From positions 3,424,001-3,488,000 of the forward strand of contig CAVRAY010000001.1 of NCBI GenBank assembly GCA_963719225.1: a DNA stretch of 64,000 bases. The letters are read 5' to 3'. The notes below the pieces were generated by a model. The model was not told where the DNA came from and did not search any database. It saw nothing but the letters and a program-made list of their open reading frames with translations. Positions 695 through 54,455 of the stretch are shown here, one piece after another. Origin of the DNA: Thermoanaerobaculia bacterium (lineage in GTDB: Bacteria; Acidobacteriota; Thermoanaerobaculia; UBA5066). The position numbers were made by a program, and so were the translations under genes. The first letter of the stretch is position 1. Each line of letters begins with the position of its first letter.

Positions 695-1876
695 TCAGAC
701 GGCCACGCCGCCCAGCGCGAGCAGGCGCCGGGCATGGGCGTCGGGCCCGAACGAGGCTCTCAGGTGCGCCGCGCCGGCCGCGAGGCGAGGTCCGAGCCCC
801 TCGCGCACGAAGCGCGCCATCGCGCGCGTGAGGGCGGGCGCATCTCCGGGCGGCACGAGAAGGCCGCTGTGCCCGTCCTCGATGATGTCCATGAGGCCCT
901 CGACCGCCGTCCCGATGACGGGGCGGCCGTACGCGAGGGCGTCGGCCGCGATACCGGAGCCCGTCGCGTGCCGGTACGGGCACACGACGGCGTCCGCGGC
1001 CGCGAACCACAGCCCGCGCTCTTTCTCGGACAGGTAGCGGAGCTCGAGACGGACGCCGGCCGGCGCCCATGCCTCGAGACGGCGCGCCTTGCCCCAGGGC
1101 TCCCCGGCGAGGACGAGCAGGGCCGATGGGATCTCTTGCCTCAGCGCCGCGAATGCGTCGAGAAGAATGTCCCAGCCCTTGTACGGCCTGAGGAGGCCGC
1201 TGAAGAGGAAGACGGGCGCGTCCGGCGGGAGGCCGAGATGGCCGCGGGCGTCGTCGCGGTCGGGCAGGACGGCGCGCGGCTCAGCCGGGTGCGGCACGAT
1301 CGCAACGGGCGCGTCCGGGCGCTCGCCGGAGATCTCGCGCGCGCTGCGCGCGTTCTGCGCGGCGAAACGATCCGCGCGGCGGAGGACGGCCCGCGTGAGG
1401 GCGTCCTTGAGGGGATGCGACTCGTGGTCGAAGACGTTGTGGCAGAGGAGGAGTCGTACGGCGGAGGGCCGCTCGGCGCCGAGGGTGGACAGGAACAGAG
1501 ACGCGTGCGCCGCGAAATACGCCGTCCACCAGGGAAGGATCACGAGAGAAACTTCTTTGAAGGAAAGATAGCGGGCCGCTCTCACGAACGAGAAAGGGTT
1601 CAACCCGTCGAGAAGCGCGGCGGCCTCTCCCAATCGAGAGCCGCGCGCCGAACCGCCGGCGTCACCCTCTTCACCTTCTAGGAAGTCTTTCTTCTCTTCT
1701 TCCGAATAGTCCGTCGTCCCCGGATAAAGAAAACGCGGATACATCCGCGAGAAGCCGACGACGAGAGGCTCGATGCCCAACCGCCGCATCGCGCGCAGGA
1801 GACGCGCGTCCTGGTCGGCGATCCCGCTGCGCCAGGGCGGGAAAGGCCCGACGAGCGCGACGACGGGAGGTGTCAT
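695..1876 (-). CDS. Glycosyltransferase family 4 (GT-B)
   Basis: N-terminal VGPFPPWRSGIA; C-terminal FSGLLRPYKG, PYRHATGSG, DALAYGRPVIGTAVEG; ATG overlaps the upstream gene's stop. Confidence 0.9.
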   Translation of the reverse strand: MTPPVVALVGPFPPWRSGIADQDARLLRAMRRLGIEPLVVGFSRMYPRFLYPGTTDYSEEEKKDFLEGEEGDAGGSARGSRLGEAAALLDGLNPFSFVRAARYLSFKEVSLVILPWWTAYFAAHASLFLSTLGAERPSAVRLLLCHNVFDHESHPLKDALTRAVLRRADRFAAQNARSAREISGERPDAPVAIVPHPAEPRAVLPDRDDARGHLGLPPDAPVFLFSGLLRPYKGWDILLDAFAALRQEIPSALLVLAGEPWGKARRLEAWAPAGVRLELRYLSEKERGLWFAAADAVVCPYRHATGSGIAADALAYGRPVIGTAVEGLMDIIEDGHSGLLVPPGDAPALTRAMARFVREGLGPRLAAGAAHLRASFGPDAHARRLLALGGVAV

Positions 1877-5450: not shown

Positions 5451-7214
5451 ATGATCCGACTCGCGCGCGCCATACGCGCCCTCGCCGTCCTTATTCCGGC
5501 CTTCGCGCTCGCGGCCTCCGCTCCGCCGGCGGCTCCCACGCCGAAGCTCGCCGTCGTGATCTCCGTGGACGGCCTCGGCTTTTCCCGCCTCGACGGCTAC
5601 CGGCCGTGGTTCGTCGCCGGATTCAGGAGGCTCCTCGACGAGGGCTATGTCGAGCGCGCCGCGCGCTATCAACACCTGAACACCGAGACCGGGCCAGGGC
5701 ACGCCTCTCTCGGAACGGGCGCGCCGCCGCGGGTCACGGGGATCGTGACGAACAGCTGGTTCGAAGCCGGCGAAGACGGTTCGCTCTACACCGTCTACTG
5801 CACGGACCAGCGCGATCCGGGGGCCCCGGCCGGGACGGCGCGCGTCGTACCCGGACCCGGAAACCTGCGCGTCCCGACGCTCGGCGACCGCCTCGTCGAG
5901 GCGAAGAAGGGCGCGCGCGTCGTCTCGATTTCAGCGAAGGACCGGGGCGCGATTTTCATGGCCGGCCGGGAACGGGCCCACTCGGTTTACTGGTACGACA
6001 AGGAGACGGGCCGTTTCGTTTCCTCGACGGCGTACGACCCGCCCTCTTCCGTCCGCTCCGCCGTTCGGAAATTCAACGAGACGAAAGCGGGGACCATGCT
6101 CCCGGGCCGTTTCGGCCTCGCCTGGAAGAAATGGCCGGCGCCCCCGCCCTCTTCCGGAACGAAGGCCCTTCCGACTCCCGTCCCCGCCTCGATCGTCCAG
6201 CGCTACCAGTACCCCGTGCACGGACTCGGCTTCGACCACGACCTCTCGCGTTTCGGCGTGATGCCGACCGGAGACACGGCGGGCTACTTCGGAGGCATTT
6301 ACAGGAGCCCGATCGTGGACGAGCTCACGGCCGACCTCGCGCTCGCCCTCCTCGACGATCCGCAGGTGAAGCTCGGACATGGCGATGCCCCCGACCTCCT
6401 CTGCCTCTCTTTTTCGGCCCACGATCCCGTCTCACACGACTACGGCAACGAATCCGAGGAGGAGCTCGACACCTTGCGGCGCCTCGACGTGCAGCTCGGC
6501 CGCCTTCTCGACGCGCTGGAGGCGCGATATTCGAAGGGGAGCTTCCTCGTCGCGCTCTCGGCGGACCACGGCTTCCCTCTGATGCCCGAGGTCGCCAGGG
6601 CGGTCGACAAGACCGCTTCGGGCGGCCGGATCGACGTCGGAAAGGAGACGCTTCACAACTTCAGGGAGCGCCTGAACCGGATGCTCGACGAGACGCTCTG
6701 TCTCGACGCCGGCGCCAAGCCGATCTTCGGGATGGACGGGTGGAATCTCTTCTACGATCGATCCGCGCTCCCGGCCCGGAGCGTCGCGGGGAGCTGCGGG
6801 GCGGCGGGACGCCCCGTCACGGCGGCCGACGTCGACCGCGTCCTGCCCGGCCTCGTGAAGCTGGTCTGGGGCGCCGAGATCGAGGACGTCCTCCTCGCGT
6901 CACAGGCGTCTTCGTGGCCCGAAACTCCCGCGCTCTCCTTCGTGAAGAACGACTTCGACGCGCAACGTTCGGGAGACGCCATCCTCGTCCCGCGCTGGGG
7001 CGTCCAGACGTCGTACAACCCGGGACGCGGCTCGATGCACGGGACGCATCACGAATACGACATCCACGTGCCGCTCGTCTTCTGGGGCGCGGGCGTGAAG
7101 GCCGGGTCTTCGAACGCAGCATCCACTCCCTACGACCTCGCGCCGACCGTGGGCGCATGGCTCGGCGTCTCGCTGCCCCAGGCGGTCGGCAAGCCGCTCG
7201 CTCTGCCGCGGTGA
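5451..7214 (+). CDS. Secreted alkaline phosphatase superfamily protein (PafA/PhoK-like)
   Basis: Signal peptide; VVISVDG, TETGPGHA (Thr nucleophile), SAKDRGAI, SAHDPVSHDYG, SADHG, MHGT, DIHVPLVFWG. Confidence 0.9.
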   Translation: MIRLARAIRALAVLIPAFALAASAPPAAPTPKLAVVISVDGLGFSRLDGYRPWFVAGFRRLLDEGYVERAARYQHLNTETGPGHASLGTGAPPRVTGIVTNSWFEAGEDGSLYTVYCTDQRDPGAPAGTARVVPGPGNLRVPTLGDRLVEAKKGARVVSISAKDRGAIFMAGRERAHSVYWYDKETGRFVSSTAYDPPSSVRSAVRKFNETKAGTMLPGRFGLAWKKWPAPPPSSGTKALPTPVPASIVQRYQYPVHGLGFDHDLSRFGVMPTGDTAGYFGGIYRSPIVDELTADLALALLDDPQVKLGHGDAPDLLCLSFSAHDPVSHDYGNESEEELDTLRRLDVQLGRLLDALEARYSKGSFLVALSADHGFPLMPEVARAVDKTASGGRIDVGKETLHNFRERLNRMLDETLCLDAGAKPIFGMDGWNLFYDRSALPARSVAGSCGAAGRPVTAADVDRVLPGLVKLVWGAEIEDVLLASQASSWPETPALSFVKNDFDAQRSGDAILVPRWGVQTSYNPGRGSMHGTHHEYDIHVPLVFWGAGVKAGSSNAASTPYDLAPTVGAWLGVSLPQAVGKPLALPR

Positions 7215-8359
7215 CGGGCGAGGCGAAAGATGCGGGCGGGAAGAGACGGCGCCCTCGCTATCCGGGCACGCATCCCCGCCGCTTCGCGGAGAAATACAAG
7301 GAGCTCGATCCGGCACGTTTTCCGGAGGAACGCGAGAAGGTCCTCGCTTCCGGCAAGACACCCGCGGGCAGTCACGTCCCGGTCCTCGTCGCCGAAGTTC
7401 TCGCGGCACTCGCGCCGGCTCCCGGCGACGTCGCCGTGGACGCCACGCTCGGATACGGCGGCCACGCTTCGGAGCTCCTGACGAGGATCCTGCCCGGCGG
7501 GCGCCTCCTCGCCCTGGACGTGGATCCCGTCGAGCTGCCGAAAGCCGAAGCACGATTGAAGACGCTCGCGCTGTCGCTCGGCGACGCGGGCGCCGTGAAG
7601 ATCGTGAGGCGGAACTTCGCGGGGCTTCGGGAGCTCCTCGCGGAGGAAGACATCGCGCGCGGCGCCGACCTCATCCTCGCCGACCTCGGCGTCTCCTCCA
7701 TGCAGCTCGACGACCCCGGCCGCGGCTTCTCGTGGAAGCACGACGTTCCGCTGGACCTCAGGATGAACCCGGAGCGCGGGCAACCGGCGGGGATTCTGTT
7801 GCTTCGGATGAAGAGAGAAGAAATTGAAGATCTTCTTAGAAGGTTGGGAGACGAGCCAGAAGCGGCGGGAATCGCCAGGGCGCTCGACGCGACGATCGTT
7901 TCGCGCCGCGCAGAGGCGCAGGCGCTACACGACGTGCCGCACGCGCGCCCGAGCTCCTCTGATATTCACCTTCTAAGAAATCTTCTCCGAACTTCGGACG
8001 TCGCGGCTGCAGTCGAGTTCACCTACCAGGGACGGACATCCCGTGAAGCGTCCGAAGCAAAGAAATCTTCTCTCCAGCGAACCTTCCAGGCCATCCGCAT
8101 CCTAGTCAACGACGAGCTGACGGCGCTCGATGCGTTCCTGAAAGATCTTCCCCATTGCCTCGCCTCCGGCGGGCGCACCGCGATCCTGACCTTCCATTCG
8201 GGCGAGGACCGGCTCGTGAAAAAAGCGTTCAAGGCCGGCCGCGAAGCCGGGCTCTACGCGCGCGTGGCATGCACGGTCATCCGCGCGACGCCCCAGGAGC
8301 GGGGCCGGAACCAACGCTCCTCCGCCGCGAAGCTGCGCTGGGCGCTGCGGGCGGGGTGA
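7211..8359 (+). CDS. rsmH: 16S rRNA m4C1402 methyltransferase RsmH/MraW (paralogue outside the dcw cluster)
   Basis: HVPVL, VDATLGYGGHA, ADLGVSSMQLD..GRGFS, PLDLRM, RTFQAIRILVNDEL, LTFHSGEDRLVK, RSSAAKLR; GTG start overlaps upstream stop. Confidence 0.9.
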   Translation: MTGEAKDAGGKRRRPRYPGTHPRRFAEKYKELDPARFPEEREKVLASGKTPAGSHVPVLVAEVLAALAPAPGDVAVDATLGYGGHASELLTRILPGGRLLALDVDPVELPKAEARLKTLALSLGDAGAVKIVRRNFAGLRELLAEEDIARGADLILADLGVSSMQLDDPGRGFSWKHDVPLDLRMNPERGQPAGILLLRMKREEIEDLLRRLGDEPEAAGIARALDATIVSRRAEAQALHDVPHARPSSSDIHLLRNLLRTSDVAAAVEFTYQGRTSREASEAKKSSLQRTFQAIRILVNDELTALDAFLKDLPHCLASGGRTAILTFHSGEDRLVKKAFKAGREAGLYARVACTVIRATPQERGRNQRSSAAKLRWALRAG

Positions 8360-8499: not shown

Positions 8500-10686
8500 T
8501 CAGTCGACCCGGATTTCGTACTTGTCATCCTTGCCGAAGATCGTGAACCCGTCGACGAAGATCGTCCAGGTGCCCGGCTGCGGGTTGGTGATCGTGACGA
8601 CCTCCGGGCTGTTCAACGTCGCACCGCTGGTGTTGAGGACGCCGCCGGGAGACCTGACGTACATGTCGAGATCGTTGGTGGGGTAGCTGCTCCAGTCGTT
8701 GTCCCAGGACAGGCTGAACGTGACGGACGCGGTTCCCGCCGGGATATCGACTGTATGCGTGACGAGCTCGCCCTGCGAGATCTTCCCCTTGAAGTCTTTC
8801 TTGGAGAGGGGCGCCGCGACTTCCTCGATCGCGAGGTCGGTCGCGATCTTCCCGGCGTTGGTCCAGTCTCCGTTGACGGTGACGCGCATCACCCCGTTTT
8901 CCGGCCGGTCGAAAACGTAAGATTTCGCGCCGTTGACGAAATCGAAGGCGAGGTAGTCCCCTTCGCCGATCGCGGAGGTCTTGGCGGAGTGGACGGCGAA
9001 GAGGAGGTCGTCGCCGAAGAAGGCGTTCTGCTGTGAGGCCGGGAGCGCCGGCGCCACGTTGAAGAGGGTCACGCGGACTTGAGCCGTGTTCTTGCTGACG
9101 ACGTAGTAGAACTCGCGGCGCTCCGCGGGCCGCAGATCGGGAATGTGCGTGGTGAACGATGAGCTGTTGATCGGCTGAATGCCGGCGCCCTCATGGACAT
9201 TCTGCGTCACCTTCTTCTTGGCGGGACCGGAGTCGGCGATCGGCCCGGGATTCGTGTTCAGAAGCGTTCTCGCCGCAGCCGCGTCGACGTAGCCGTGGCC
9301 CTGGTCGACGGCAGTCGCGGTCGGAATGACTGTCGAGCGCGCGGAACCGACGATCGCGGAGCGGATCTGCGCCGGCGTCGCCGACGGCTTCGCGCTGTAG
9401 AGGAGGGCCGCGACGCCGGATACGGTCGGCGAGGAGAAGGAAGTTCCGGAGACCAGGGAGATCGAGCCGTTGGCGCCCTGGGCGTAGGAGGCGAAGCCGT
9501 TGGCGACGACCTCCGGGTCGATACGGCCGTCCGCGTCGGGACCGCGCGAGCTGAAGTAGGCCATCTGCTGGTTGTCGTCCGGACGATAGAGCGCCCCGAC
9601 ACCGGTCCCGAACTGCACATCTCGCAGGATGCGCTCATGGACGGGGCTCGAGGCCGCGCCCACCGTCAGGATGCCATGCGCCGTGCCGGGACTTCCGACC
9701 GTCGTGCCGCTCGGCCCCGCGTTGCCCGCCGAGACGGCGAGGGTGATACCCGAAGTGGCCATGGAGGTCGCAAGCTCATCCTCGATGTCTCCGCCGGCAA
9801 AGACGGTCGGCCCGCCGAGGCTCATGTTGACGACCTTCATGTTCGGCAGGGTCGAGTTCTTCAGATCGATCGCGCGATCCATGGCCGCCATGATGCGACT
9901 TGTCGGCGCTCCGGCCCCCGACGCCGGGAACACCTTCAGGGCGAAGAATTGCACCGCCGGGGCCTGGCCCACCATCGGGATCCCATCGACAGTCGGACTG
10001 GCCGCGAACGAGCAGGGAGATGAAGCCGCCGGTGTGCAGTAGTTGCGGACGGCGGTCGCGAAAGTGCCGGTGTGGCTGAACCCGAACGCGGCATTCGCGC
10101 CGATCATGCAGGCGACCCAGGTTCCGTGAGCGTCGTTCGTGGAGGCCGTAGCGTCCGGCTCACCCGGGACGAAGCTCTCGCCGCCGAGGACGCGTGTCCC
10201 CGTCGCGCAGGGGCCATTACAGAGAGCCGTCGCCGTGCGAGAGGTGCCCGTGTCGATGACTCCGACCACGACCCCTTGTCCGAGGATTCCCTCCGACAGG
10301 AGCGGCCGGGCGTTTGTCAGATCGCTGTTGTAGGGGAAGTAGTTCGCCGGCGCGGCGCCGGAGCCCAGGTCCGACTGAACGTCACCCGTGACGTCGACGA
10401 CCAGCCTGGGCTTCGGGGCGGGCACCGTCTCATCGCGCACGGTGTAAAGGACCCCGGCGGTCGAGTTCAACGCGTCGACCTTGTTGTCCGGAATGGTCAC
10501 CGCCAGACCGTTTGCGTTCCTGAACTCGTATGTCACGGCCCCGCCGAGGGCGGCAATCTTCTGCTTGACCGCGCCGTACGGTTTCATCGTCCGGACGATG
10601 ACCGCCTGGTCCGCTGCGAGTTCGGCCGCGGTCAAGAGAGCCGCGACACCGAGCAGAAAGGTGGATCGGAGCATTCCTATCCTCAT
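8500..10686 (-). CDS. Secreted S8 (subtilisin) serine peptidase with C-terminal PPC-like domain
   Basis: Signal peptide; triad motifs VIDTG, HGTWVA, GTSFSSP; oxyanion SAGNAG; C-terminal DLDMYV...NSPEVV; GGAGG RBS. Confidence 0.92.
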   Translation of the reverse strand: MRIGMLRSTFLLGVAALLTAAELAADQAVIVRTMKPYGAVKQKIAALGGAVTYEFRNANGLAVTIPDNKVDALNSTAGVLYTVRDETVPAPKPRLVVDVTGDVQSDLGSGAAPANYFPYNSDLTNARPLLSEGILGQGVVVGVIDTGTSRTATALCNGPCATGTRVLGGESFVPGEPDATASTNDAHGTWVACMIGANAAFGFSHTGTFATAVRNYCTPAASSPCSFAASPTVDGIPMVGQAPAVQFFALKVFPASGAGAPTSRIMAAMDRAIDLKNSTLPNMKVVNMSLGGPTVFAGGDIEDELATSMATSGITLAVSAGNAGPSGTTVGSPGTAHGILTVGAASSPVHERILRDVQFGTGVGALYRPDDNQQMAYFSSRGPDADGRIDPEVVANGFASYAQGANGSISLVSGTSFSSPTVSGVAALLYSAKPSATPAQIRSAIVGSARSTVIPTATAVDQGHGYVDAAAARTLLNTNPGPIADSGPAKKKVTQNVHEGAGIQPINSSSFTTHIPDLRPAERREFYYVVSKNTAQVRVTLFNVAPALPASQQNAFFGDDLLFAVHSAKTSAIGEGDYLAFDFVNGAKSYVFDRPENGVMRVTVNGDWTNAGKIATDLAIEEVAAPLSKKDFKGKISQGELVTHTVDIPAGTASVTFSLSWDNDWSSYPTNDLDMYVRSPGGVLNTSGATLNSPEVVTITNPQPGTWTIFVDGFTIFGKDDKYEIRVD

Positions 10687-10847
10687 AGAAAACCTCCTTT
10701 GGCGAATTCCCAGTTGAAAGAATGAGAACGAGACACATTGACTGCTGCGATATATCACGCGCCGGCGGCTCGCTTTGTGCCTTTCTTGGTGGCATTTTTT
10801 CAGTTGCGCGCGACTCCAGAACGTAGCTGGCTGACTCGGGCCCTGGG

Positions 10848-19629: not shown

Positions 19630-20598
19630 ATGACGGAGCCGCTCGAGGACCGCTTCGCGCGACACGTCGAGGAGGGCCGCCTCTTCGCGGGCGCGCGCAC
19701 GCTCGTGGTGGCGCATTCGGGCGGCAGCGACTCCACGGCGCTTCTCCTCCTCACGACCGCATGGGCGTCTCCGCGCGGCGTCCGGGTCATGTCGGCGCAC
19801 GTCGCGCACGGCCTCCGAGGCGCGGCGGGCGACGCGGACGCGCGTTTCTGCGCACGGCTCGCCGCGACTCTTTCGGTGCCTTTCACGCTCCATTCCGTGG
19901 ACGTCCCCTCCGGACGGAGGAAGGGCGAGAGCGTCGAGGCGGCGGCGCGGCGCCTGCGGTACGCGGCGCTCCTCGACCTTTCGCGCGGCCTCGACGGCCC
20001 TCTCGTCCTCACGGGCCATACGCGCGACGATCAGGCCGAGACCGTCCTTCTCCACCTCGAGCGGAAGCTCGGCCGCGGCCGCGGCGGCATCCGCGCGCGC
20101 CGGAACGACGGCGTCGTCCGCCCGCTTCTCCCCTTCTCGCGCGCCGAGCTCCGGAAGTTCCTCGCGGAAAAAGGCGTTCCCTTCCGCGAGGACGAGACGA
20201 ACGAGAACGAGGTCTTCGCGCGGAACCGGATTCGCCGCAAGGTCCTGCCCGAGATGGAGCGAAGGGACCCCGGCAGGACCGCGCGGCTTGCGCGCGCGGG
20301 AGCGAAATGGGGTGAAAGGCTGGACGCGCTCGATGAACGGCTCGTCGAGGCGATGGCGAAAGAGAAGATTTCTTCGAAGGGTGTCTGGCCCCGTTCCTTC
20401 TTCGCCCGCCTCTCGCCCGAAGAGGCTGGCCGCCTGCTCGTGAGGGCGGCCGGAGCCGGCGGCCGCGTACCCGGAAAGGCCCAGCTGAAAAAGGTCCTGA
20501 GCCGCATCGAGAGAGGCGACAAGACCTTCGGCGAGGAGTTCGCGGGCGGGCGGATCGAGGTCGACCCTCGCCGCGTTCGGTTCGTCCCGCGACGGTAG
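19630..20598 (+). CDS. tilS: tRNA(Ile)-lysidine synthetase (short form)
   Basis: PP-loop AHSGGSDS, AHVAHGLR, EAAARRLRY, TGHTRDDQAETVL, VRPLL, EDETN, RNRIR. Confidence 0.92.
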   Translation: MTEPLEDRFARHVEEGRLFAGARTLVVAHSGGSDSTALLLLTTAWASPRGVRVMSAHVAHGLRGAAGDADARFCARLAATLSVPFTLHSVDVPSGRRKGESVEAAARRLRYAALLDLSRGLDGPLVLTGHTRDDQAETVLLHLERKLGRGRGGIRARRNDGVVRPLLPFSRAELRKFLAEKGVPFREDETNENEVFARNRIRRKVLPEMERRDPGRTARLARAGAKWGERLDALDERLVEAMAKEKISSKGVWPRSFFARLSPEEAGRLLVRAAGAGGRVPGKAQLKKVLSRIERGDKTFGEEFAGGRIEVDPRRVRFVPRR

Positions 20599-20654
20599 AT
20601 TTCAGCGCGCTTCGCGCGCCGGAGGATTTCTTAGAAGGTGATTAGGATAGGGAC

Positions 20655-22121
20655 ATGAGCATTCGCAGAAGCGCTCTTCTGGCGGCCTGCGCCGCCGCCG
20701 CCCTCTTCCTACTCGAAGAAAAATCCTCTTTCTCCGCCTCCTCCGCTCCGCCGCCTCCGGCATCGGCTGCCCCCTTCGACGCGTCGTTCACCGCACGCAC
20801 GATGCGCGTGGACCTCTTCCACACGGGCGGGCCGAAGGGCGAGATCGTGGCGCTCGATCGCGCCGTGAACGACGGACCGTGGCCGGGCAGCCGCACGCGC
20901 CTCCTCGACGAGACGAACCTCGGGACGCACTTCTTCGAGGTGCGCAGCGCACGCACGAACGGCGTCCTCTTTTCGCGCGGGTATTCCTCGATGTACGCCG
21001 AATGGGAGACGACCGGAGAACAGAAGAAGGCGTCGCGCACGTTCCCCGAGTCGCTGCGCTTCCCGTGGCCGAAAGAGCCGGTCCAGATCGTCCTGTCCCG
21101 GCGCGACGCCGCGGGCGCTTTCCAGCCGCTCTTCACGGCGACCGTCGACCCCGCCGCTGCGAACCTCGCCCCGCGCCCGCCGCTCGGGAAGGTCTGGACC
21201 GTCTTCGAGAACGGGCGCGCCGCGACGAAGCTCGACCTCCTGATGCTCGGCGAGGGCTACGCCGAAAAGGACCTTCCTAAGTTCCACGCCGACGTGAAGA
21301 AGCTCGTCGACCTCCTCTTCTCGTACGAGCCCTTCAAGTCGCGTCGCTCGGACTTCAACGTCCGCGCGCTGGACCTGCCGTCGGCCGAGAGCGGCGTCTT
21401 CCGGCCGGACTCGAAGATCTTCCGGCGCACGCCTCTCGGCGTCCAGTACGGGATCTTCGGGTCGGAGCGTTACGTCCTCACCTACGACGAGCGCGCGCTG
21501 CGGGAGGCGGCCTCGGCCGCGCCGTACGACTTCCTCGAGATCCTCGTGAACGACGCGCGCTATGGCGGCGGCGGCATCTTCAACGACCAGGCGACTGCGG
21601 CCGTCGACTCGTCGTGGGCCGAGTACCTGTTCGTGCACGAGTTCGGCCACCACTTCGCGGGCCTCGCCGACGAGTATTACGGGTCGGACGTGGCCTACGA
21701 GACGGGCGGCGAGAAGCCCGAGCCCTGGGAGCCGAACGTGACCGCCCTGAAGGACCCGAAGGCGCTGAAGTGGGCCGACCTCGTCGAGAAGGGGACGCCG
21801 CTGCCGACTCCGTGGGAGAAGGAAGCCTTCGAAAAGCAGACCCGCGCCATCCAGGTCGAGCGCAGGAAGCTCGTGGCTTCCGGCGCGCCGCCATCCGCGC
21901 TCGACGACCTCTTCCGCCGGCAGATGGCCGCCGATTCGAAGCTCCTGTCCTCGATGACGTGGTCCGGCAAGGTCGGGGCTTTCGAAGGCGCTGCATACGA
22001 GGCGAAAGGCCTTTACCGGCCGTCGGCCGACTGCATCATGTTCACGCGCGATCCGGGCGGCTTTTGTCCGGTCTGCCGGCGGGCGATCTCCCGCGTGATC
22101 GACGAGCACTCCCGGCCCTGA
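20655..22121 (+). CDS. Secreted peptidase M64 (IgA peptidase family)
   Basis: Signal peptide; LGEGY, YGGGGIFN, HEFGHHFAGLADEY, WEPNVT, GAFEGA.Y, CIM, FCPVC. Confidence 0.9.
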   Translation: MSIRRSALLAACAAAALFLLEEKSSFSASSAPPPPASAAPFDASFTARTMRVDLFHTGGPKGEIVALDRAVNDGPWPGSRTRLLDETNLGTHFFEVRSARTNGVLFSRGYSSMYAEWETTGEQKKASRTFPESLRFPWPKEPVQIVLSRRDAAGAFQPLFTATVDPAAANLAPRPPLGKVWTVFENGRAATKLDLLMLGEGYAEKDLPKFHADVKKLVDLLFSYEPFKSRRSDFNVRALDLPSAESGVFRPDSKIFRRTPLGVQYGIFGSERYVLTYDERALREAASAAPYDFLEILVNDARYGGGGIFNDQATAAVDSSWAEYLFVHEFGHHFAGLADEYYGSDVAYETGGEKPEPWEPNVTALKDPKALKWADLVEKGTPLPTPWEKEAFEKQTRAIQVERRKLVASGAPPSALDDLFRRQMAADSKLLSSMTWSGKVGAFEGAAYEAKGLYRPSADCIMFTRDPGGFCPVCRRAISRVIDEHSRP

Positions 22122-24698: not shown

Positions 24699-24832
24699 GC
24701 GTCGCGCGCGCGACGGCGGCCATTTAAGGCTTTCTGCGAATGGTAATAGGGCTGGGCCACGGGCCGTTGCTTCGACGTCGCCCGAGCTCGTCCTAACCTT
24801 TCTAAGAAGAATCTCTTCGGCCTGCCGCCGAT

Positions 24833-39634: not shown

Positions 39635-40519
39635 GTGAACGCCACGATTCCGTTGACCGAGGCGCGGATGCTGAGCTTCGGCCTTCTTCCGGGCGTCATG
39701 GCGATCCTGAACGTCACGCCCGATTCCTTCAGCGACGGCGGGCGCTTCGCGAGCGCGGAGGCGGCCGGAGAAGAAGGCGTCCGGTTCGCCGAGCTGGGCG
39801 CCTCGATTCTCGACGTGGGGGGCGAGAGCACGCGCCCCAGAGGCAGCGCATACGGAGAGGGCGCAAGAGAGATTTCTGCGAGTGAGGAAGAGGGTCGCGT
39901 CCTGCCCGTCCTCTCTTACCTTCGCAGAAATCTTCCGTCCTTCCCCCTCTCGGTCGACACGCGGCGCGCCTCCGTGGCGCGCGCGGCGCTCGACGCGGGC
40001 GCAGACATGGTCAACATCGTCACCGGTCTCGATGCGTCCGATGAAATGCTCTCCGCGATCGCCACCGCAGGCGCGGCCGTCATCCTGAATCACTGCCGCG
40101 GAACCCCGCGGACCACCTTCGAAGAATCTTCTTTCACCGACGTCATTGCCGACGTTGCCTCGGACCTTCGCACCGCCCGTGAGCGCGCGATCTCCTCCGG
40201 AATTTCCGAGCAAAAGATCTTTCTCGACCCCGGCTTCGGATTCGGCAAGACGCCCGAGCAGAACTTCGCGCTCCTCGGCGCTCTCGATCGGCTCGCGCCG
40301 CCCGGCGTCCCGCTCGTCGTCGGCGCGTCGCGCAAGGCGTTCCTCGGAACGGTCGCTGGAACGCCCGTCACGGACCGCCTCCCGGAATCGCTCGCGGCCG
40401 CGGCCGTCTGCGCTCGGGCCGCGCGCACGCGGCCCGTTCTCGTGCGCGTCCACGACGTCGGCGAGACCGTCCGGTTCCTCGCGACCCTCGGGCGAGCGGG
40501 CCGTCCCGCACTCACGTAA
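39635..40519 (+). CDS. folP: Dihydropteroate synthase
   Basis: MAILNVTPDSFSDGG, DVGGESTRP, SVDT, DPGFGFGK, GASRK, RVHDV. Confidence 0.96.
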   Translation: MNATIPLTEARMLSFGLLPGVMAILNVTPDSFSDGGRFASAEAAGEEGVRFAELGASILDVGGESTRPRGSAYGEGAREISASEEEGRVLPVLSYLRRNLPSFPLSVDTRRASVARAALDAGADMVNIVTGLDASDEMLSAIATAGAAVILNHCRGTPRTTFEESSFTDVIADVASDLRTARERAISSGISEQKIFLDPGFGFGKTPEQNFALLGALDRLAPPGVPLVVGASRKAFLGTVAGTPVTDRLPESLAAAAVCARAARTRPVLVRVHDVGETVRFLATLGRAGRPALT

Positions 40520-46904: not shown

Positions 46905-48185
46905 ATGGAAAAGGAAGTGTTTTCCTCCGAGGACCGCGCCCGGATCGAGGCGCAGGGCCTGACCGTGGAAGAGGTGCAGCGGCAGGCGGCGTTCCTTCGA
47001 GACCCGCCGCCCGCGGCGAAGCTCCTCAGGCCCTGCACGGTCGGGGACGGAATCGTACGGATCGACGAGAGCGAGCACGAGGAGCTCCTCGCTCTCTCGG
47101 ACGACGCGGCCCGCGCGGGCAGGCTTTCGAAGTTCGTGCCCGCGTCCGGCGCCGCGAGCCGCATGTTCGATTTCCTTTCCCGCGGCCCCGAGAGCCCGGA
47201 GAGAAAGAGATTCTTCGAGAGTGTGGACGCGTTCGCCTTTTCCTTCGCGGGCGACTTCGATCGCCTCGCGGCCACGCCCAAGGGCCTTCTCGCGTTCCAC
47301 CGGTATCCCGACGGCAACCGCACCGCGTTCGAGGAGCATTTCTTCGAGGCCGCGTACACGATCCGCGACGGGGCCGGGAACTGCCGGATCCACTTCACCG
47401 TCCTGCCCGCTCATCGTGCCTCGTTCGAGCGGGCGCTCTCACAGTTTCTCCCGCTCGTCGAGCGCCTGACGGGCGCGCGCTTCATCGTCTCCTTCTCCGA
47501 GCAGTCGCCGTCCACCGACACCGTCGCGATCGACGAGTCGGGACGTCTCTTCCGGGATTCGGAGGGGCGCCTGCTCTTCCGGCCGGGAGGACACGGCGCG
47601 CTCCTGAAGAACCTCGCCGAGACGGGTGGCAACGTCGTCCTCGTCAAGAACATCGACAACGTCGTTCCCGACGACCTCCGCGCGCCGACGCTCCTCTGGA
47701 AGAGGCTCCTCAGCGGCCTTCTCTTGCGGATCGAGCGTACGAGCCCGCGGGACCGACCGCTCCGCGCCTGCGGGGTCGTGCGCAACGAGGGAGAGCCTGG
47801 CGGCGGCCCGTTCTGGGTCGGCGAACCCGGCGGAGAGACGCGGCAGATCGTGGAGTCCGCCCAGGTGGATCTCGCGAATCCCGCGCAGGAGGCGATCTGG
47901 CGCGCGGCGACGCACTTCAACCCCGTGGACCTCGCATGCTCCCTGCGCGATTCGTCGGGCCGGCCCTTCGAGCTTTCGCGCTTCGTGGATGAAAGCGCCG
48001 TCTTCGTCGCGAAAAAGACGCACGAGGGGCGGACGCTTTTCGCCCTCGAGCGGCCGGGACTGTGGAACGGCGCGATGGCCTTCTGGGAGACGGTCTTCGT
48101 CGAGGTGCCGAAGGAGACGTTCGCGCCCGTCAAGACGGCCCTCGACCTCCTGCGCCCGGAGCACGCCCGCGCCGATAAAGTTTAA
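46905..48185 (+). CDS. DUF4301 family protein
   Basis: KFVPASGAASRMF, PKGL, FRPGGHGALL.NL, KNIDNV, NEGEPGGGPFW, THFNPVD, PGLWNGAM. Confidence 0.9.
   Translation: MEKEVFSSEDRARIEAQGLTVEEVQRQAAFLRDPPPAAKLLRPCTVGDGIVRIDESEHEELLALSDDAARAGRLSKFVPASGAASRMFDFLSRGPESPERKRFFESVDAFAFSFAGDFDRLAATPKGLLAFHRYPDGNRTAFEEHFFEAAYTIRDGAGNCRIHFTVLPAHRASFERALSQFLPLVERLTGARFIVSFSEQSPSTDTVAIDESGRLFRDSEGRLLFRPGGHGALLKNLAETGGNVVLVKNIDNVVPDDLRAPTLLWKRLLSGLLLRIERTSPRDRPLRACGVVRNEGEPGGGPFWVGEPGGETRQIVESAQVDLANPAQEAIWRAATHFNPVDLACSLRDSSGRPFELSRFVDESAVFVAKKTHEGRTLFALERPGLWNGAMAFWETVFVEVPKETFAPVKTALDLLRPEHARADKV

Positions 48186-50793: not shown

Positions 50794-54455
<3,662 letters not shown>

Follow-up and report, generated by a model that had tools for sequence, protein, structure and literature searches.

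Among the short repeated signals of bacterial chromosomes, REP/BIME sequences and the REPIN doublets with their RAYT are dispersed in hundreds of copies as inverted doublets whose members stand tens of bases apart, and the highly repetitive motif of Lactococcus lactis is short, unexplained, present in about 900 copies, mostly downstream of genes, and non-randomly placed with a helical spacing. The DNA uptake sequences (USS/DUS) of Pasteurellaceae and Neisseria are lineage-specific, present in hundreds of copies on both strands, located to about two thirds in genes, of mutational origin and able to reshape the proteome (PMC2817400). The MatP/matS system of E. coli and the XerD/XDS system of B. 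subtilis use dispersed, terminus-weighted sites near dif in a genome with SMC (PMC11840125, PMC11894783, PMC10117906). The chromosomal hairpins (CHINs) of H-NS and StpA form on silenced DNA that is AT-rich and was acquired horizontally, with a protein bridging both arms of the hairpin (PMC12460168). Here, we describe a paired sequence signal that is closest to matS/XDS sites or H-NS hairpins in its proposed mode of action and to uptake sequences in its distribution, and that departs in a defining feature from each family that could be tested. Literature searches, with most subscription journals outside their coverage, found no description of its motif.

The window is a stretch of 64,000 nucleotides. 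It contains all 12 sites of the six clusters listed in an initial annotation of this DNA (23-33 bits); each pair consists of a reverse copy followed by a forward copy, and the spacing of 47-138 bp given there matches all six pairs. The longest of these lies in an rsmH gene, where the minus-strand copy (7821..7851, 31.7 bits) rewrites a conserved helix of RsmH in rare codons that are AT-rich and the plus-strand copy (7961..7991, 32.8 bits) falls in a length-variable loop of the protein, at a centre-to-centre distance of 138 bp across a GC-rich spacer (7852..7960). The host gene (7211..8359, + strand; TIGR00006 above cut-off, start from our own gene caller) is a second rsmH paralogue with an N-terminal extension; the canonical copy lies at 271 kb of contig C1. 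The second paralogue is present across the genus and was not found in the two sister families searched. The other pairs, again minus before plus, lie in a GT4 glycosyltransferase gene (1541..1571, 28.9 bits; 1666..1696, 33.0 bits; 123 bp), upstream of and in the 5' end of a peptidase M64 reading frame (20616..20646, 31.6 bits; 20702..20732, 30.5 bits; 84 bp), directly past the ftsH stop codon with an intergenic partner (24720..24750, 23.3 bits; 24790..24820, 26.5 bits; 68 bp), in folP (39862..39892, 23.3 bits; 39911..39941, 30.9 bits, an in-place recoding; 47 bp) and in a loop insertion of ligA (53853..53883, 28.1 bits; 53931..53961, 29.2 bits; 76 bp). Five further sites of 17-29 bits, centred at 10686, 20374, 40122, 47215 and 53590, are unpaired: a weak plus-strand copy (10672..10702, 19.4 bits), a minus-strand copy in tilS with no adjacent partner (20358..20388, 29.4 bits), a weak plus-strand copy in folP (40108..40138, 17.4 bits), a minus-strand copy at 47199..47229 (23.3 bits) and an extra minus-strand copy in ligA (53574..53604, 23.7 bits). 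Thus, the six pairs stand, and the claim that the motif always occurs in pairs was too strong.

The genome of the window (G000) comprises 4.75 Mb at 68% GC on two contigs (C1 and C2), in a bin with 6% contamination, and our gene caller predicts 4088 genes, with 90% of the sequence coding. Two tmRNA genes, each near a tRNA-Pro and in inverted arrangement (G000 C2:217541-222743 and C2:609793-615051), represent a duplication or contamination. A matrix trained on this genome converges on about 830 sites at 18 bits and yields 876 sites at 16 bits once overlaps are merged. At 25 bits or more, 565 hits were found in the real genome versus 41 in the reversed one, and at 16 bits or more there were 3 in 2.4 Mb of control DNA from two other families. 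The consensus is roughly cctcttcaCcTTCtAAGAAatcttc on the strand that we name '+', with a pseudo-palindromic core, TTC-N3-GAA, between pyrimidine-rich flanks; the core with two free bases that had been proposed has 0 matches in the window. Between about -20 and +45, the plus strand has many pyrimidines and few G; the inner edge is sharp, and the outer tail, in which TCTTC/TCTCT is frequent, fades over 40-50 bp. The motif was real but described too short, as its pyrimidine-rich flank reaches about -20 on the inner side and its tail extends 40-50 bp outward; the whole signal is polar and 30-50 bp long, a core plus an outward TCTTC-rich tail. The 3' end of the 16S gene together with the start of the ITS (G000 C1:905530-905550; L001) resembles the consensus at most positions, misses two core bases and was treated as a chance match.

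Is the paired arrangement common beyond the window? Across its genome, 381 neighbouring sites lie 21-300 bp apart where about 44 are expected by chance, and random orientation was not seen: 283 neighbours are -/+, 10 +/-, 40 +/+ and 48 -/- (binomial p about 1e-70), in agreement with the reverse-then-forward order first noted. Adjacent pairs account for 566 of the 876 sites. About 200 clusters are single sites, and a weak inverted partner lies on the inner side in 59 of 201 versus on the outer side in four. Strict-pattern matches over 29 genomes of the genus gave 1157 of the right polarity versus 18 opposite. Few pairs (15 of 283) are spaced more closely than 65 bp, the approximate floor; the distribution peaks at 75-79 bp and trails off towards about 250 bp, and among the 85 intergenic pairs a spacing of 68-85 bp was seen in 38. 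The suggested phasing of 10.5 bp is absent (maximum Rayleigh Z 1.6, p 0.38; intergenic p 0.6); strict pairs of relatives gave a weak hint (Z about 4) that is confounded by codon multiples.

In the genomes searched, the signal is confined to a narrow lineage of uncultured Acidobacteria. Every genus genome (29/29) carries pairs, one sister genus has them sparsely in 7/8 genomes, and none was found in eight further genera of the family (26 genomes). Strict pairs number 12-115 per genome in the genus versus 0-16 in the sister genus, a roughly 100-fold range of load among close relatives. A search of the GTDB collection with the pair pattern gave at least 118 loci; among the matches listed, 76 of 80 titles name Acidobacteriota or Thermoanaerobaculia, and the remaining four are without a strong pair. 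A sample of 91 class and 401 phylum genomes otherwise showed short cores at the same level as the controls. All these searches follow the letters of the motif, and a different motif of the same layout would escape them; G025, which is marked unpublished, serves as one negative outgroup row among several, and no claim is based on it alone. Phage searches returned 1 and 69 pattern matches, nearly all of them low-GC chance matches, with two strong sites in 0/2 high-GC loci. Among insertion sequences, a 1.34-kb element (IS5-like by eye, with a 4-base target; G000 C1:2033786-2035122 and eight other copies) carries a weak copy of the signal 82 bp inside its right end, and a 29-bit copy lies 68 bp inside the end of an IS110-like element, of which five copies (G000 C1:1111421-1112942, C1:2198825-2210162) are inserted in the attC-like repeats found in integron-like arrays. 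IS circle junctions create no new pair.

Along the chromosome, the sites increase from origin to terminus. The dnaA gene lies on C2 and a dif-like site, conserved in 24/25 genomes of the genus, at 2.0376 Mb of C1 near the GC-skew turn. With C2 assumed to be joined to C1 in reverse orientation, as is consistent with where dif and the GC-skew turn lie, the site clusters in eight bins from oriC to terminus number 32, 28, 37, 54, 64, 86, 87 and 106, a roughly 3.5-fold rise (Spearman 0.78 between site density and distance from oriC over 46 bins). The rise is seen on both arms, in coding and in intergenic DNA, and persists within old shared genes (3.5, 13.6 and 21.2 per 100 kb), where a codon-score proxy hardly changes. 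The density rises smoothly, and sites occur near oriC as well. The dif-like site itself is flanked by two pairs, and four sites were found in only 1/117 comparable intergenic regions. In the genus, 17/22 dif loci have a site within 220 bp versus 0/8 loci of other families, counts in which kin are not independent and for which the base rate in similar intergenic regions is about 21%. The signal core matches the left dif arm of the window's genome at 6/11 positions by eye, a possible likeness to a Xer arm. A further dif-like site was observed in L187 (G037 C2:64890-67910), an AT-rich stretch in a GC-rich bin with a second topoisomerase II A gene nearby, which is probably foreign sequence in the assembly.

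Based on these features, we speculate that the pairs are sites of a putative lineage-specific nucleoid protein that bridges the arms of a small DNA loop, a tentative reading to which we give a little less than an even chance. Such a protein would grip both copies at once, so that the 65-250 bp of double-stranded DNA between them form a small loop; the core would be read by a dimer, and additional subunits would extend outward over the tails. Where inverted copies lie symmetrically about a U-turn they run side by side, and the protein could zip both arms as in a supercoil's end loop. The tip loop of a supercoil has been modelled at about 73 bp, with a range of 40-120 bp (PMC6301789), and it is the combination of side-by-side inverted sites with a spacing peak matching this loop that favours a bridging nucleoid protein. 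What suggests a CHIN-like, protein-bridged hairpin at the pairs is their symmetry and spacing; compared with the CHINs (PMC12460168), the pairs are short and sequence-specific, enclose DNA that is GC-rich and are located in core genes. About 500 anchors, weighted to the terminus half, might shape or constrain the late-replicated chromosome, as matS/XDS sites and H-NS hairpins do elsewhere. In support of bridging we count the polarity of 283 versus 10, the spacing floor, the conservation of pair positions, the lack of partner covariation (both below) and the terminus weighting. Against it stand the missing helical phasing, which rigid short loops should show; the range of load among close relatives, odd for an essential architecture; the 5/22 dif loci of the genus without a nearby site, together with a gradient that is not confined to the terminus; and the bare DNA of the pairs, in which neither intrinsic curvature at the pair centres nor supercoil pinning is predicted (log W -30.91 vs -30.82 at random positions, parameters of PMC6301789 supplement 1). 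The looping or bridging reading of the initial annotation is thus the best survivor of the tests, though the phasing predicted from it is absent and proteome subtraction against parts of two outgroup genomes yielded no convincing binding protein.

A bolder form of the bridging reading is possible but rather doubtful: several hundred pairs fitted to the supercoil end loop, weighted to the terminus and zipped into fixed hairpins by a new bridging protein, would constitute a sequence-encoded code for chromosome folding, for which selection would have rewritten conserved proteins and driven loop insertions. Most known chromosome-shaping sequence signals stem from a few model species; this one arose in one small clade, has about 900 copies and visibly rewrites conserved proteins. 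Its load, from 0 to more than 100 strict pairs among close relatives, makes gain and loss traceable by comparison. Once found, the reader would reveal either a new system of nucleoid architecture with addressable loop anchors or a new two-site molecular drive, and the origin-terminus gradient, the dif-flanking pairs and the spacing floor render both ideas testable.

Molecular drive, by a bias of uptake, packaging or recombination for fragments with two facing-away sites, would let sites pile up wherever proteins tolerate them and assign them no chromosomal role. We consider it unlikely, although much of the distribution resembles that of uptake sequences: an over-represented, lineage-specific motif on both strands with many coding copies. 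Coding sites make up 596/876 (68%), in all six frames and both orientations, near the 65% reported for the H. influenzae USS (PMC2817400). In addition, site density in codon-optimised genes is low (1.3 vs 40 per 100 kb, a partly circular comparison), the load varies widely among relatives, and sites arise through mutation and not by insertion. Compared with outgroup homologues, two modes of origin were seen. Kinase genes, folP and others are recoded in place with no change of length; for folP, the enclosed DNA was correctly described as conserved coding sequence, its length being almost unchanged. In ligA and others, the whole pair sits in a loop insertion, of about 37 residues in ligA. Orthologue alignments show tails growing via short in-frame duplications, and we infer that new sites may arise from existing seeds by point change and slippage, with no insertion of an element. 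The most regular case of recoding is a tandem array of Ser/Thr kinase genes (G000 C1:2295924-2319751), in which each gene carries the same 93-bp pair across two kinase-domain segments. Drive is opposed by the fixed polarity, the lower spacing limit and the origin-terminus gradient. Uptake sequences are reportedly more evenly spaced than random, with no required partner (PMC2817400), whereas the sites here are clumped in polar pairs 65-250 bp apart around unrelated DNA. No competence link was found for the signal; comEC is present, but occurs in motif-free families too.

Each site might instead act independently, as a polar roadblock or unloader for a translocating machine such as SMC, FtsK or a topoisomerase, a pair then working in both directions with no bridging. 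This is quite unlikely in our estimate. XDS and matS sites are described to unload condensins near ter (PMC11840125 and PMC11894783); the terminus-weighted density, the sites beside dif and the missing phasing fit such a role, and the genome has genes for SMC, FtsK, XerC/D and a Topo IV-like pair. However, independent sites need neither the narrow peak at 68-85 bp nor the upper limit near 250 bp. Relatives that lack the motif have these machines too, and Topo IV occurs in families and genera free of it; an additional Xer paralogue shared by the three genus genomes searched was not seen. Unlike matS and XDS, and matS in particular with its confinement to a terminus macrodomain, the roughly 900 sites here extend chromosome-wide as back-to-back pairs with a smooth 3-4-fold gradient.

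The divergence of pairs within genes bears on a further alternative, in which a two-site enzyme (nuclease, translocase or repair enzyme) uses the pair as its substrate and introduces cuts or nicks between its sites, error-prone repair then causing spacer turnover. In 26 genes, gap columns amount to 14% inside pairs vs 0.4% far away, amino-acid divergence to 0.38 vs 0.18 and four-fold-site GC to 0.815 vs 0.89-0.90 elsewhere, domain-like spacers included, all in favour of such cutting; synonymous divergence, however, is hardly raised (0.40 vs 0.39), and the pairs prefer tolerant loops. A self-cutting site should vanish, yet pairs are kept in ligA and in recG-like and tRNA-synthetase-like genes (the last two named by eye), and we regard cutting as improbable. 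Pair positions are conserved between species while the spacers gain and lose bases. The rsmH pair is kept in 20/22 loci covering the region, with a spacing of 81-174 bp that is always a multiple of 3 in orthologues (the outgroup rows of this alignment are canonical RsmH and not strict orthologues), and at 47/55 spanning homologous loci of relatives a pair stands at the same place as in the window's genome (background 2%, loci not independent).

Pairing of the arms with each other, as an RNA stem, a single-strand hairpin or a cruciform, is very improbable. A duplex of about -30 kcal/mol is possible between any two copies, and the purine-rich copy comes first in a transcript from either strand. 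Nevertheless, partner-specific complementarity is absent in three tests: the members of a pair resemble each other no more than randomly matched copies do (z 0.66), their duplex energy is -29.89 vs -29.74 +/- 0.39, and the free core base is identical in 0.404 vs 0.399 in 114 pairs from relatives. The cruciform reading put forward initially, like that of a hairpin, thus lost its support, and the missing covariation is what is expected if a protein reads each site independently. The spacers, of 70% GC, fold no better than shuffles (z -0.14 and -0.30), and the signal pair has neither a covarying stem nor a match to an Rfam family, nor the gene-end position of terminators. Intergenic DNA is about 4x richer in sites per base than coding DNA; in the window's genome there is no excess of sites between convergent genes and no SD-like spacing, hence no link to promoters or terminators. 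A Shine-Dalgarno role was ruled out, since the distance to start codons is not fixed.

The weakest alternative, that the pairs are decayed miniature transposons, REPIN-like units or invertase/recombinase sites, can point to those pairs that form protein-loop insertions together with their spacer, and is the least probable of all and largely refuted by unrelated spacers, the many pairs that recode conserved sequence with no length change, the lack of target duplication in 89 intergenic pairs, the lack of inverted spacers and the lack of a Y1 transposase in the window's genome and G019. The enclosed DNA is unrelated, as first noted: 283 spacers fall into 231 similarity clusters, the largest of which (16) holds mostly paralogous kinase genes. 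Nor do the repeats match their own partner better than other copies (z 0.66), as those of a miniature transposon would, and the argument against a simple MITE holds. The same spacer orientation is favoured in 46/56 between-species comparisons (33/40 coding, 13/16 intergenic), the reverse in 8 with small margins, where an invertase would leave the segment in both orientations; this, and the 167/283 pairs that lie within one gene, leaves the recombinase reading unsupported. In contrast to REP and REPIN sequences, which are mostly extragenic and accompanied by a RAYT, the arms here are not GC-rich hairpins, spacers are unrelated, 68% of the copies are coding and RAYT (Y1 transposase, PF01797) is absent from G000 and G019, with one match in G013. 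In contrast to the L. lactis motif, there is no phasing and most sites lie in genes.

Which protein could read the sites under the bridging reading? No convincing candidate for a binding protein emerged when the proteome was subtracted against two outgroups, with 52% of one genome and 0.4 Mb of the other covered. Seven small basic candidates had weak Pfam matches at most and were rejected, the one tested being family-wide. A basic protein of 70 residues with no Pfam match (G000 C1:3738401-3738613) was observed in 53/61 genomes of the family. The bacterial histone DUF1931 was not found in 5 genomes. Topo IV, whose motif in E. coli is short and weak (PMC10117906), was encountered across 25 genomes of the genus (partial or broken in some fragmented ones) versus 1/16 of two sister families, there on a probably foreign contig. 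The parC-like and parE-like genes are unlinked (G000 C1:1029222-1031546 and C1:3740723-3742639); such genes occur in the family and in several other families of the class and were not found in two sister families. The two strongest leads, Topo IV and a ParB encoded beside dif, were both rejected as not specific, because both occur in motif-free relatives, Topo IV in several families and genera and the dif-linked ParB order-wide, with nearly the same recognition helix in motif-free families and a separate palindrome beside dif. A ParB paralogue of matching distribution, as parS/NBS sites would have, was thus not among the proteins found.

The locus of this ParB is an observation in its own right. 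A second parAB operon adjoins dif (G000 C1:2037865-2039524, L238; also L230, L232, L235 and L236) in 5/5 genomes checked from three families, and has the appearance of a partition system linked to the terminus. Its ParB shares about 32% identity with that of oriC, and an imperfect palindrome of 17 bp, located about 34 bp from dif in the genus, may be its site.
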